A DNA stretch of 64,000 nt from an uncultured Actinomycetota bacterium (GTDB lineage: Bacteria; Actinomycetota; Actinomycetes; Propionibacteriales; Propionibacteriaceae): the NCBI GenBank assembly GCA_963840505.1, contig CAWIZB010000018.1:73292-137291 (forward strand). The letters run 5' to 3'. The notes below the pieces were generated by a model that had not been told where the DNA came from, searched no databases, and was given only the letters and a program-made list of their open reading frames with translations. Shown one piece after another: positions 35,628 to 39,034 of the stretch (positions are counted from its first letter, which is position 1; each line of letters begins with the position of its first letter). The translations under genes were made by a program, and so were the position numbers.

Positions 35628-37028
35628 CTAGTTGGCGCCGCGGTTCAGCACGACCTGGACAAGCCGGCGCAACTCGGGCGTGAGGTCCTGCTCTGGCACC
35701 GTGAAGCGCCAGTCGCCATATTCAACGGTGTAGACAAACCGATCTGGAGCCGGCCGTGTGGCCGTAATTGGCTGCAGGCCGACACTCATCAGTAGGTGCC
35801 GGACCTCCGGCCCTTCCGGATCAGAGTTGAGATCCAATTGCCCGATCTTGGTGGTGCCGGCAAAGCCTCCGCTGCGACACACCGCGACGGTCGCGGGCTC
35901 GTCGGGGCCCGCCGGCGAGGAGCCGGTCGGGGGCTCGGATGAACCAGCGGACTCGGTGATGCCAGCGCGTGCGTCCTGAGCCACCGCGAGATCAACACCC
36001 GCAGCGAGCAGGCCGACCTCGACCCACGCGGCCCAAACTTTCTCCGCGACCGACGGGTCGTTCATGAAAAGGCGACGTGCTGAGGTGACCGTAGCCTGTG
36101 CGAACGACTCAAAGCCGGCTTGCGCACTCAGTTGACCATTGACCAGCGTGTCATACCAAACCTGGCCAGCCTTCTCCCAGCTGTGCCCACCAATCTCCAG
36201 CGCTGCCAGGGCGAAGGCCCGGTTGGGAATTCCTGAGTTGATATGGACACCGCCGTTGTCCGTATCGGTTACGACATAGTCCGACATTGAGCCCACCTGC
36301 AAATCCCTGCCGATTTGGGGGTCGTCGTACGCCGTTCCGGGTTCTCGCATTGATCGGAGCGCTCTGGCGTTGATCCCCGGCATGAAAAGTCCCTCCCCGA
36401 TGAGCCAGTCAGCCTGGGCCGCAGTCTGGCCGAGCACGTGCTGTTTGGCTATCGAGGCAAAAACGTCGCTAATGCTCTCGTTCAGGGCGCCTGGCTGGTC
36501 TTGATAAGCCAATCCGACCGTGAACTGGGTGACACCATGCGTGTACTCATGCGCCATCACATCCATTGGCTTGGTGAAGCGGTCGAAGATCTGCCCATCT
36601 CCATCGCCAAAGACCAGCTGAGTTCCGTCCCAGAATGCGTTGTCGTAATCACGCCCGTAGTGGACGGTGATGGAGACCGTGCCGCCACCTCCGTCAATCG
36701 ACTGCCGGCCGAACTGGCTGTCGAACATATCCCAGACTTGACCGGATGACTCGAACGCCTCGTCAACCGCTGGATCACCGACCGGGGGGTCGCCGTTGCT
36801 CCGGGCAACCTCCCCGGGCAGCAACTCCGTGTTGTTGGCAGTGTGCACCACCCGCTTCTTGGTGCCAGGCAGGCGTGGAGCAGCCATCTGATCCGCTGGC
36901 GACTCCCGTCGGGCCCGCAGACGGTCATCGACCTGCAGTGTTTCCCTGCCGGATGCGGACGCCTGACGAGTACCGCCCCACAGGGCGACGCGCTGCAGCA
37001 GGTAGGGCGGAACAAAGGTGCAGCACAT
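35628..37028 (-). CDS. Protealysin-like M4 metalloprotease fused to a C-terminal emfourin-like inhibitor domain
   Basis: Propeptide FVPPYLL, HEYTH, GALNESISD, DNGGVHINSGIPN; Pro/Ser linker; then RSGGFAG...PDRFVY.V. Confidence 0.88.
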   Translation of the reverse strand: MCCTFVPPYLLQRVALWGGTRQASASGRETLQVDDRLRARRESPADQMAAPRLPGTKKRVVHTANNTELLPGEVARSNGDPPVGDPAVDEAFESSGQVWDMFDSQFGRQSIDGGGGTVSITVHYGRDYDNAFWDGTQLVFGDGDGQIFDRFTKPMDVMAHEYTHGVTQFTVGLAYQDQPGALNESISDVFASIAKQHVLGQTAAQADWLIGEGLFMPGINARALRSMREPGTAYDDPQIGRDLQVGSMSDYVVTDTDNGGVHINSGIPNRAFALAALEIGGHSWEKAGQVWYDTLVNGQLSAQAGFESFAQATVTSARRLFMNDPSVAEKVWAAWVEVGLLAAGVDLAVAQDARAGITESAGSSEPPTGSSPAGPDEPATVAVCRSGGFAGTTKIGQLDLNSDPEGPEVRHLLMSVGLQPITATRPAPDRFVYTVEYGDWRFTVPEQDLTPELRRLVQVVLNRGAN

Positions 37029-37419
37029 GACGCCCTCCTCAACATGGTCTCCGACAAGATGGCACAAAAATGCAGCGCACTTAGGTCACCTGATGGTTTG
37101 ATGAATTCGTTGCGACCGCCTGCAGCATGCTCACAGGCAGGTTACATTCGGTTTTGCGACCATCGGGGGAGAATTTTTGAGCAGGGTTCTTGACGGCATG
37201 CCCCCGCACGTTTCAGGCTGACTTCGGAATGGGTCACCTCGCGCGTGCGACGGCTACCTGTTCTGTGGGTTCGATTGACGGCGCACAATCGGTGACGGCC
37301 ACCATCCGATGGGGCCGATTCTGTGGCCAACTGGGGCCATGGACCGAGGGCGTGCGTGCCTGAGTCGCACTCACTGGCGACGCGTTGGAAAGTGCGCGAA
37401 GCACCTAACGCGATTTTGG

Positions 37420-37442
37420 CATGTCCACTTTAGGACATGTCC
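37420..37442. promoter_or_regulatory. Palindromic operator CATGTCC-ACTTTA-GGACATG(TCC)
   Basis: Perfect 7-bp inverted repeat plus an overlapping GGACATGTCC palindrome, ~20 bp upstream of a predicted -35. Confidence 0.55.
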
Positions 37443-37463
37443 GCTTCCTGCTGCCCTTTTCGC

Positions 37464-37492
37464 GTGACTTCGACATAGGCCATGCATAGCGT
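37464..37492 (+). promoter_or_regulatory. Predicted sigma-70 promoter of the repeat-peptide gene
   Basis: GTGACT-N17-TAGCGT. Confidence 0.4.
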
Positions 37493-37565
37493 CCATCTTG
37501 ACAAGCTCAGGTTCTCGCCCGGCCGGCTGCGCCGGCACGGCGGGACGTCAAGAAGGGAAACTCAA

Positions 37566-37702
37566 ATGCAGAGCATCAATCGTGGACATAGCCTTCGCGG
37601 ACATAGCCTTCGGGGACACAGTCTTCGGGGCACAGTCTTCGCGGACACAGTCTTCGGGGGCACAGTCTTCGCGGACATAGCCTTCGGGGGCACAGCCTCT
37701 AA
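37566..37702 (+). CDS. Small repeat peptide MQSINR(GHSLR)x7-GHSL (45 aa after restoring one G at 37627-37630)
   Basis: RBS aaggga, ATG 37566, eight 15-nt units varying only at synonymous positions in this frame, in-frame TAA at 37700. Confidence 0.75.
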
Positions 37703-37746
37703 GCCAAACGCAGCGCACATTCTCTAAGCCAAACGCAGCGCACATT
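37697..37746 (+). repeat. 25-bp perfect tandem duplication ctctaagccaaacgcagcgcacatt x2
   Basis: Seen directly; includes the peptide stop codon. Confidence 0.9.
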
Positions 37747-37827
37747 TCTGCTTCTGCTCTGAACCGCGTGCCAAATCGCGGTCGAAAGGCTAGTGAAATC
37801 GCGTCCAAAGTCAGATAGTGTTGTCAT

Positions 37828-38010
37828 AGACAAGGCAAGCACCAGATCTTCCGCAAGGAAGCCGGGATACCTGACGTTCCCGGTGGTCGAGATGCGTACT
37901 GAGCGTGGCTCGACCAGCACAGCCCGTGTGGAACTTTTCCCCGAGGTTCCGCTCGGAGTTCCTCCCCCTGGGCGACGCCCGCGGTTCAGATTCGGACCGC
38001 GGGCGTGGCT
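37828..38010 (+). ncRNA. Structured small RNA candidate (possibly Ms1-like)
   Basis: Promoter GTGAAA-N17-TAGTGT (37793-37821); five consecutive hairpins including a GCAA tetraloop; 11-13 bp terminal stem at 37975-38006; no RBS-led ORF. Confidence 0.55.
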
Positions 38011-38017
38011 TTGGGAT

Positions 38018-39034
38018 TTAGCTTCCATGCCCGATCCGGGTCTGAGGCTGATAATTCAGGTATGCAACGGATCTGCCGCCGCGTAAACCGTCTGACCTGA
38101 CGAGTGCTGCGCCTAGCTGCAGCCGCGTCGACACCCCCAGCTCATCCATAAGTTCAGAGATCCAGCGCCGGACCGAGCGCACGTTGATGTTCAACGTATT
38201 CGCTATTGCAGAGTCGGTTGAGCCGGTCATCAGCATTGAGATCAACATCTGGCGACGTGGATCGTTTTCACTGTTGACGGAGGTCATGATCGGCACCGCC
38301 GCCTCCCACACCGCCTCGAAGAGCCACTGCAGTGCTTCGACCAGCAGGGCATGGCGCACGACCGAGGCCCTGAGTTCATGCCCTGGGGCGTACGAACGCA
38401 TCGATGGGATGAGGGCAGTATGAGAATCGATGATGATCAACTTCATCGGAACCGGTGACGTACGTGACTGTTCGCCCTTCTTGGCGAAGAGACTCAGTTC
38501 GGTAAGTCGATCGGCGTCGAAGCCTGGGTCGTAGACGCATCGCATCATCACGTTTCGCTCCAGCGCCTGCCACTCCGGCTCGACGCTGAGAGCCTCTTCG
38601 GTGATGGTCGACCTGATCTGCGCGTACGGCGGCTTGTCGAAGAAGCAGATCTCCCGACGGGCGGAATCCATCAGGTCTCGGTGTACGGCGACTATCGACT
38701 CGCGTCCGACAATGGTCTTGACGTCGTCCTCGGTCGCCCCAGCGGCCGCCAGGTGACTCTCCAGCGACTCGGCCGCCACACTCGCCAACTCGATCTCGGA
38801 CAATCGCTGGGCCTTGAGCTGGTTGACCACATCGAGTAAGGGCAACGCCCGCCAATGTCCCAATGAGGAATCCGTTGCCAGCCCGAGCTTTCGCAACTCC
38901 TCGAGGGTCTCAGCCACACACTCAGAGGTTGATGACGTGAGCCGCGCCAGCTCAGCCACCGACGCCGAAGCCAGTGGCCCGAGCGCGACATATATGGCCT
39001 CCGCTTCGGCACTGATGCCTAGCGGCTGAAGCAT
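38018..39034 (-). CDS. TrmB N-terminal HTH + sensor + LuxR-type C-terminal HTH regulator
   Basis: LGISAEAEAIYVAL..VAELA; PMKLIIID..ALIP; LMTGSTDSAIANTLNINVRSVRRWISELMDELG..TRLQLG. Confidence 0.88.
   Translation of the reverse strand: MLQPLGISAEAEAIYVALGPLASASVAELARLTSSTSECVAETLEELRKLGLATDSSLGHWRALPLLDVVNQLKAQRLSEIELASVAAESLESHLAAAGATEDDVKTIVGRESIVAVHRDLMDSARREICFFDKPPYAQIRSTITEEALSVEPEWQALERNVMMRCVYDPGFDADRLTELSLFAKKGEQSRTSPVPMKLIIIDSHTALIPSMRSYAPGHELRASVVRHALLVEALQWLFEAVWEAAVPIMTSVNSENDPRRQMLISMLMTGSTDSAIANTLNINVRSVRRWISELMDELGVSTRLQLGAALVRSDGLRGGRSVAYLNYQPQTRIGHGS

Follow-up and report, generated by a model that had tools for sequence, protein, structure and literature searches.

A genus-wide small gene of Microlunatus with repeated short peptide cores, a possible multi-copy signal precursor

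In the RRNPPA family (Rap-Phr, Bacillus phages), tandemly duplicated pheromone propeptides are processed by extracellular proteases (PMC11343458). Leaderless communication peptides (LCPs, of the SIP/LCP-RopB type) are very short, unsecreted open reading frames (ORFs) located beside a regulator (PMC10518010). In fungi, Kex2-processed repeats and alpha-factor-type precursors contain tandem identical cores with basic separators, and the peptide is kept while the DNA drifts (PMC7329392). Repeated short cores and variable spacers are also found in the multi-core precursors of RiPPs (peptides made on the ribosome and modified after translation), such as the cyanobactins and graspetides. A thermolysin-family M4 protease gene, NprB, is located beside the PlcR-PapR locus, and in Staphylococcus aureus the quorum-sensing output RNA RNAIII also encodes a peptide, hld. 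Here we describe a small ORF with eight copies of the tetrapeptide GHSL in a 64,000-nucleotide stretch of DNA, hereafter the window, from an uncultured bacterium of the Propionibacteriaceae in the Actinomycetota (assembly GCA_963840505.1, contig CAWIZB010000018.1, positions 73,292 to 137,291). Comparison with relatives identifies it as an unannotated small gene in a module found throughout the genus Microlunatus, and we suggest that its product may be cut into identical short peptides.

The ORF is built on the only sizeable tandem array that Tandem Repeats Finder (TRF) detects in the window (37580-37698, period 15, 8.0 copies, score 133), and the array occurs once in its own genome (4.55 Mb, 64.5% GC). 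An earlier note on this DNA described eight 15-nt units, one of them reduced to 14 nt by a run of four G, and both the sequence and TRF agree. The units differ at unit positions 4, 7, 10 and 13, plus CTT/CTC in the last unit, and every variable position is a third codon position in the frame from the ATG at 37566. Upstream of the G run this frame reads MQSINR(GHSLR)3. Downstream, in the +1 frame, it continues as HSLR(GHSLR)3GHSL and ends at the TAA at 37700-37702, while the assembled frame drifts into ...GTVFADTVFGG...AAHIL and stops at 37727. Without the frameshift the peptide has 45 residues, i.e., a six-residue head (MQSINR) and eight GHSL cores with a single Arg between them. The ribosome-binding site, the ATG and the TAA directly after the last GHSL are located as the note had it; relatives keep the first two and have a stop directly after the last core. 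A 25-nt direct duplication at the 3' end of the array copies the final codons of the ORF together with the stop and the sequence 3' of it, and is a sign of slippage or duplication.

It is true that all differences between the units are synonymous in one frame, as the note claimed, but that frame is not unique. A minus-strand frame, (RLCPR)n, present in the list of ORFs as ...RRLCPRRLCPRRLCPR..., is equally synonymous. Thus, the window array alone cannot choose the strand, and a strand call from within-array synonymy was rejected.

The strand is instead settled by the relatives. Most genomes assigned to the same GTDB genus contain homologues of this intergenic region. One genome per species was scanned for an invariant 19-base motif of the RNA downstream of the small ORF, which gave 82 loci, about 62 of them true homologues, from soil metagenome-assembled genomes (MAGs) of the Propionibacteriaceae and from Microlunatus parietis, M. 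speluncae, M. ginsengisoli and Microlunatus sp. SOC37. In four close relatives an upstream palindrome, the promoter hexamers, the ribosome-binding site and the ATG align base for base. The DNA of their arrays differs and the logic is the same, each being a series of cores followed by a stop: M..(GHTLR)n GHTL-stop, (GHTL[S]K/R)n GHTL-stop and (GHSLS[K/R])n. One of these relatives has a second small ORF, MTR(GHSL[N]K/R)n GHSL-stop.

Codon statistics were obtained from 32 intact leaderless homologous arrays drawn from the scanned loci. Differences within the arrays fall at codon positions 3, 1 and 2 in 1007, 101 and 64 cases, respectively, and 992 codon differences are synonymous against 45 that are non-synonymous. 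The units are 15 nt (94), 18 nt (65) or 21 nt (1) long. The earlier note had named the arrays of relatives as the place where its coding reading could fail, and what is found there is change that is nearly always synonymous and lengths that are multiples of three. In the 25 arrays with at least four cores, the frame from the ATG is the only stop-free frame of six and by far the most repetitive in amino acids. The minus-strand frame that is synonymous in the window contains 38 stops among the relatives' arrays. Both the synonymy and the stops thus decide for the frame from the ATG. These comparisons, near the strongest evidence obtainable without an experiment, confirm the array as a translated, unannotated small gene. 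They also show strong purifying selection acting on the peptide and conservation of the module around it.

Several relatives contain more than one such gene. In L081 (SMAG_U10720), L085, L086, L096, L103 and L090, two or three leaderless repeat ORFs stand in tandem, and in some species each tandem ORF has its own AAGGAG site or an ATGA overlap. In L081 the ORFs are joined by such a stop-start overlap (..GHGLR-stop/MSRGHGL..).

Distant members of the genus reveal an older form of the gene. There a small ORF with the same promoter, ribosome-binding site and ATG encodes first a typical Sec signal peptide and then the cores; the signal peptides were judged by eye (basic n-region, h-region, A-x-A site) and not by a predictor. 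The cores follow the consensus [A/G/S/V/I]-[N/H/R]-[G/S/T]-[L/I/V/Y], and are the same within a species and different between species. There are 1-12 copies, separated by spacers of 0 to about 12 residues. At least 12 species have their first core directly behind A-x-A, and the final core ends at the stop in all species. Examples, with ^ marking the A-x-A site, are SAGA^AHTL SQSK AHTL SQTK AHTL ... AHTL-stop, SADA^VNSL... and AHA^AHGV RSNTVIAR AHGV-stop, as well as AASA^VNSL KAENGWGSE VNSL QFESG VNSL-stop in M. speluncae. Strain SOC37 likewise has VNSL three times, and the cores of M. parietis are VNSI and VNGV. Other species have higher copy numbers behind the signal peptide, (ANGL)5-stop, (SNSL)8-stop and (GNSL)12-stop, or a single C-terminal core, ..QVNGI-stop in M. 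ginsengisoli and ..FQGRGY-stop in M. sagamiharensis. What the earlier note took for a pentapeptide core is a conserved tetrapeptide, GH[ST]L, with R/K (or SK, NR, SR, GR) as the linker.

The variable spacing and copy number suggest independent cores released by cleavage, and not a folded repeat. A pentapeptide-repeat or other solenoid fold was rejected because the unit length varies. The units, 4-8 residues of the form x-[NHR]-[GST]-[LIVY], do not follow the beta-helix consensus A(D/N)LXX in strict five-residue runs; this test rested on unit lengths and consensus, and no search aimed at a Pfam domain within the peptide itself was made. An attenuator leader peptide was also rejected, as the same strand has no downstream gene.

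The propeptide layout, a Sec signal with a C-terminal mature peptide, is seen in most Microlunatus species but not in the leaderless clade of the window. Intermediates exist, both signal peptides followed by GHSL/GHTL cores and decaying signal-peptide ORFs followed by new leaderless small ORFs. The leaderless K/R-linked arrays are thus derived: the window's clade has lost the signal peptide, gained the K/R linkers and multiplied the cores. One locus, L080 (SMAG_U1895), seems to capture the change from the exported to the leaderless form in progress. Its signal-peptide form is apparently decaying, with a stop after one GHSLR and further GHSL out of frame, and 3' of it a seven-codon ORF, MNRGHSL, follows a strong AAGGAGG site.

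The three leaderless arrays that were looked up exactly in a collection of 15 billion proteins have no record there. The signal-peptide forms of isolates are recorded as hypothetical proteins (WP_344802748.1 in M. ginsengisoli and WP_157719987.1 in M. sagamiharensis), and a protein similarity search with one signal-peptide form returned nothing at E<=0.01. The description in the earlier note of a hidden small gene, a multi-core precursor of an undescribed family, therefore stands. Although multi-copy peptide precursors as such are already known, our searches found neither a relative in sequence nor a Pfam or Rfam model for this family, and no publication on it.

The features of the locus are collected in Table 1. 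The module is genus-wide in Microlunatus and consists of the palindrome, the small ORF, a structured RNA of about 185 nt, a convergent regulator and, usually, a gene for an M4 protease-emfourin fusion.

Table 1. Coordinates of the small ORF and of the features around it in the window.
Feature	Positions	Strand	Remarks
M4 protease-emfourin fusion	35628..37028	-	protealysin-like, HEYTH intact, N-terminal PPYLL, without signal peptide; Pfam Peptidase_M4, M4_C, Emfourin
Palindrome ATGTCC-N6-GGACAT(GTCC)	37421..37442	.	putative protein-binding site, from conservation
Promoter-like GTGACT-N17-TAGCGT	37464..37492	+	GTGACT 37464-37469, TAGCGT 37487-37492
Ribosome-binding site AAGAAGGGAAA	37550..37560	+	5 nt 5' of the ATG; kept genus-wide
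Small ORF, intended extent	37566..37702	+	MQSINR + (GHSLR)x7 + GHSL, TAA; two in-frame pieces on either side of the G run
ORF as assembled	37566-37727	+	sequence with G4
Array of eight GHSL cores	37584..37699	+	Arg codon after the first seven (15-nt units); last core runs to the stop
G4 run	37627..37630	+	makes unit 4 14 nt long, one-base frame shift
Direct duplication, 25 nt	37690..37746	+	2.3 copies, TRF score 100
Promoter-like TAGTGAAATCG...GATAGTGT before the structured RNA	37791..37821	+	specific to the window's clade and its nearest relatives
Conserved structured RNA, ~185 nt	37828..38012	+	alignment A4, RNAalifold; terminator stem 37974-38012
Convergent regulator	38018..39034	-	winged helix-turn-helix (HTH), coiled coil, PLD-like domain (TrmB/TrmBL2 fold), C-terminal LuxR/GerE HTH; true start MLQPLG

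The promoter proposed in the earlier note is where it was placed, and in an alignment of 23 loci conservation reaches at least 90% in the TGAC columns of its first hexamer and in the TA columns of its second. A generic sigma-70 promoter/terminator scan of 36900-38300 flagged nothing, though the hexamers are kept in relatives. The palindrome lies about 26 nt 5' of the -35-like hexamer, with its centre about 70 nt 5' of the inferred transcription start. At class I sites, a position about 70 nt upstream is typical of activators, and the position of the palindrome would thus be activator-like. The palindrome is invariant in close relatives and recognisable genus-wide, and its exact sequence occurs once in the genome, with 0.16 occurrences expected.

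A near-copy of the palindrome, ATGTCCGCTTTTTGACATGTCC, is located elsewhere in the same genome, outside the window, on contig C25:31827-32165 (loci L136-L143), where it heads a transcript-like unit. The unit consists of a non-coding stretch of about 270 nt followed by a terminator and is very highly conserved in six genomes of the same genus. The stretch has no match in Rfam. Between its G-rich segment GGGGGAGGGAAC and the invariant, C-rich GUUCCUCCCCCU in the small ORF's 3' RNA, complementarity is nearly complete. Short-read MAG contigs break inside this unit.

The RNA at the 3' side of the small ORF folds into five helices according to RNAalifold. In the alignment, 96.7% of cells are paired and 15 of the 39 pairs show compensatory double changes. 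None of 500 shuffles scored as high, and controls with the structure slid along the alignment were 40-49% paired. The secondary structure of the ~185-nt RNA is thus supported by covariation. Two C-rich motifs, UUUUCCCCGAGG (37935-37946) and UUCCUCCCCCUGGG (37959-37972), are invariant and unpaired. A search of Rfam with the region 36900-38200 gave no match better than E=2, and the RNA is single copy in its own genome.

In most species this RNA would be the 3' untranslated region (UTR) of the small ORF, as it starts about 45-55 nt past the stop. In the window's clade it is located 200-250 nt further on, with promoter-like boxes of its own before it, and in several relatives within that clade a hairpin directly follows the small ORF. 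The 5' UTRs of the signal-peptide forms (alignment A2, e.g., L006, L007, L008, L011) contain a conserved AACGUCAGGGGUUC; within it, ACGUCAGG matches the complement of the invariant CCUGACGU in the 3' RNA, which makes pairing between the 5' and 3' ends of one transcript possible. A duplex of the 3' element with the 5' regions of the protease, the regulator or the small ORF was dropped as uninformative, as the full-length duplex energies (-68 to -100 kcal/mol) are weaker than the mean of random stretches of the genome (-108). In another genome (G018, contig C41:4452-4568, locus L022) a 4.6-kb contig carries at its end a further copy of the RNA's 3' part, which is 97% identical to that in the window and is probably a strain variant or an assembly duplicate.

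The convergent gene encodes a regulator with weak Pfam matches to GerE and DUF7436 and a profile match to GerE 1fse (E 5.8e-5). In Foldseek its AlphaFold2 (AF2) model (pLDDT 71) is closest to TrmBL2, 5bpd (E 4e-14), followed by PLD-fold proteins and the TrmB sugar-binding domain (2f5t). The model thus suggests two DNA-binding domains, a TrmB-type winged HTH and a LuxR/GerE HTH, around a PLD-like domain. The regulator adjoins the small ORF, in convergent orientation, in every locus with enough flanking sequence. Its orthologues (E<1e-100) are confined to this genus and are always located beside the small ORF, and next to the weaker paralogues of other Propionibacteriales families no such ORF is present. 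Another family of the order has two to six such paralogues per genome, at a genome size of about 8 Mb.

On the other side, 35 of the 43 loci whose upstream DNA is long enough have the M4-emfourin gene as their divergent neighbour. The fusion is kept across the genus, with matches that reach residue 464-466 in most loci. In Serratia, protealysin and emfourin are encoded in one operon. The only other conserved neighbour is gnd.

Compared with the described systems, the locus resembles a propeptide locus of the Rap-Phr type: a small ORF beside a regulator, a Sec signal in most species, a pro-region, the presumed active peptide at the C-terminus, several copies of the putative pheromone, specificity to the species and a candidate for the protease that maturation of such propeptides needs. 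However, there is no sequence relation, the hosts are Actinomycetota and not Bacillota, up to 12 identical copies occur, the signal peptide is missing from one whole clade and the locus includes a structured RNA. The predicted receptor is also different, as the modelled regulator combines a TrmB/PLD-like fold with a LuxR HTH and contains no tetratricopeptide repeat (TPR). On the evidence of this modelled fold, the module is not a member of the RRNPP family.

The leaderless forms recall the LCPs, as short ORFs without a leader beside a regulator, and the seven-codon MNRGHSL is of LCP size. LCPs, however, are single and hydrophobic and act through Rgg/RopB-type receptors in Firmicutes, while the peptides here are hydrophilic, basic and multi-copy and the regulator is unrelated; a Foldseek search with the regulator model found no Rgg/RopB-type receptor at the locus. 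With the fungal repeats the arrays share tandem identical cores, basic separators and a peptide that outlasts its DNA. But those are substrates of the eukaryotic secretory pathway with dibasic KR and a signal peptide, while here the separators are a single K/R without a signal peptide in the window's clade, and mostly non-basic in the clades that have one. In most Microlunatus species the locus is also similar to RNAIII/hld, with a small ORF and a conserved structured RNA bearing C-rich unpaired motifs that would share one transcript. There is no sequence or structural relation between the two (no Rfam match), and the RNA of the window's clade apparently has a promoter to itself.

We suggest that the product of the gene is a multi-copy precursor, cleaved to give identical short peptides with a signalling role, and we place the probability of this at about 0.5. 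A core directly at the A-x-A site, a core directly at the stop, and variable spacers and copy numbers favour independent cores over a folded repeat. Cleavage would release the cores; in most species it would follow Sec export, and signal peptidase would then set the amino end of the first core and the stop codon the carboxyl end of the last. The M4 protease-emfourin fusion is a candidate for the processing enzyme. The cores could then feed back, through the convergent regulator, on the promoter with the palindrome; the regulator would bind this site about 70 nt upstream and drive expression of the small ORF. The structured RNA with its unpaired C-rich motifs, made with the small ORF or next to it, may be part of the output. 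Cleavage, export or re-import, the peptide sensor and the role of the RNA are all inferred.

Several observations weigh against this proposal. The TrmB/PLD-like fold of the regulator is not the TPR fold of the known cytoplasmic peptide receptors, and effector domains of the TrmB type bind sugars. The window's clade has no signal peptide, which leaves export of its peptides unexplained. The residues flanking the cores do not point to a single protease specificity, and the M4 protease has no signal peptide and is absent from 8 of the 43 loci. In addition, the window copy is frameshifted as assembled.

An alternative is that the peptide is a substrate, decoy or modulator of the neighbouring M4 protease-emfourin. 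The cores would then be cleavage sites, [G/S/T] followed by [L/I/V] as a hydrophobic P1', and the array would serve to titrate protease activity or to report on it, or fragments of the array would act on the protease and its inhibitor, without a signal between cells. M4 enzymes favour a hydrophobic P1', and actin is cut at Gly42-Val43 by grimelysin, an enzyme closely related to protealysin (PMC12643060, PMC7311988). This preference fits the G/S/T-L/I/V of the cores, the gene is the divergent neighbour in most loci as given above, and the protease and the leaderless peptides, both without a signal peptide, would share a compartment. However, eight loci retain the small ORF and the regulator without an adjacent protease, and in most species the peptide is Sec-exported while the protease has no signal. 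Cutting within the cores would also leave unexplained why the first core begins at the signal-peptidase site, and peptides with two cores would yield unequal products. This alternative is unlikely, though it is the main rival.

The G4 run raises the question of whether the gene is truly broken here, by a real one-base deletion that makes it a recent pseudogene or the off state of a slippery G run. The assembly does show four G, and exact-pattern scans of a metagenome collection found no contig of the same species. On the other hand, frameshifts occur in 7 of 25 arrays from Nanopore-derived MAGs and in none of 27 arrays from short-read MAGs or isolates (Fisher p=0.0036). The seven (L038, L040, L061, L065, L066, L070, L082; one to three indels each) all come from the 'MFD' MAG series, which we take to be Nanopore-based, and two of them contain several indels within 90 nt, partly in G runs. 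The window's own genome, 33 contigs of up to 667 kb, has a contig pattern like that of the Nanopore MAGs. Further, the four units past the shift are still perfect GHSLR/GHSL with an in-frame TAA, so any break must be very recent, and a run of 4-5 G is short for phase variation. The earlier note read a true G4 as a pseudogene or a phase-variable state; an assembly error from long reads is the better explanation and, in our judgement, a very probable one. A gene that is really broken, or a repeat that is not translated at all, is rather unlikely. Tandem-repeat small ORFs are thus indel hot spots in Nanopore MAGs, which would hide such genes from gene callers.

It is improbable that the peptide acts intact, as a repeat polypeptide that in the leaderless clade is cationic and rich in His and Arg and binds metal ions, nucleic acids or other polyanions, or is antimicrobial. 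(GHSLR)n has one basic residue and one His per five, and its composition is strongly conserved. An amino-terminal Gly-His, as cleavage would produce, resembles known Cu(II)-binding peptides. But orthologous genes at the same position encode neutral cores without His or Arg (ANGL, SNSL, GNSL, VNGI), and GRGY has no His, which weakens the metal- or polyanion-binding idea of the earlier note. The variation of the unit between 4 and 8 residues among close relatives speaks against both a conserved fold and a binding register that is fixed, and one species keeps a seven-codon ORF with a single core.

The RiPP-like reading of the same note fares worse, and we consider it highly improbable that the cores are modified by enzymes encoded elsewhere in the genome. 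The multi-core layout, the short variable spacers and the conserved Ser/Thr/Gly at core position 3 would be compatible with it, and some RiPP precursors have Sec signals. However, Pfam searches for maturase families (radical SAM, YcaO, lanthipeptide, ATP-grasp, P450, MNIO) found none among the conserved neighbours or within about 9 kb on each side, and the only linked enzyme is a protease. Unlike multi-core RiPP precursors the gene has no long leader, and the heads of 3-6 residues in the leaderless forms contain no recognisable maturase leader. A non-coding role of the repeat, as DNA or RNA, has a very slim chance: the GGACAT in the units resembles a half-site of the palindrome, but an array of DNA binding sites was rejected since relatives do not keep the DNA motif (GGTCAC, GGCCAC) and do keep the peptide.

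Taken further than the signal precursor itself, it can be speculated that the locus is a peptide-pheromone-type module native to the Actinomycetota, with a TrmB-fold/LuxR-HTH regulator in place of an RRNPP receptor. Within one genus it may have evolved from a single-core Sec propeptide to a multi-copy one and then to leaderless K/R arrays. The last step was perhaps from a shared to a cell-private signal, and the output would include one or two small RNAs under control of the palindrome, the 3' element and the C25 unit. We regard this fuller scenario as possible but somewhat doubtful.

Ribosomal peptide signals are well studied in Firmicutes and barely known in actinobacteria, and the known cytoplasmic receptors share one fold. 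The module described here, if it does signal, is of a type without a description from actinobacteria. It is easily recognised and can be studied in cultured species, M. parietis DSM 22083, M. speluncae, M. ginsengisoli JCM 16929 and M. sagamiharensis; among the genomes covered, no member of the leaderless clade comes from a culture. It is also a clear case of genes that annotation misses, as the exact look-up of the three leaderless arrays illustrates. Finally, the genus would offer a natural series, from a secreted single-copy propeptide through multi-copy forms to a leaderless precursor.

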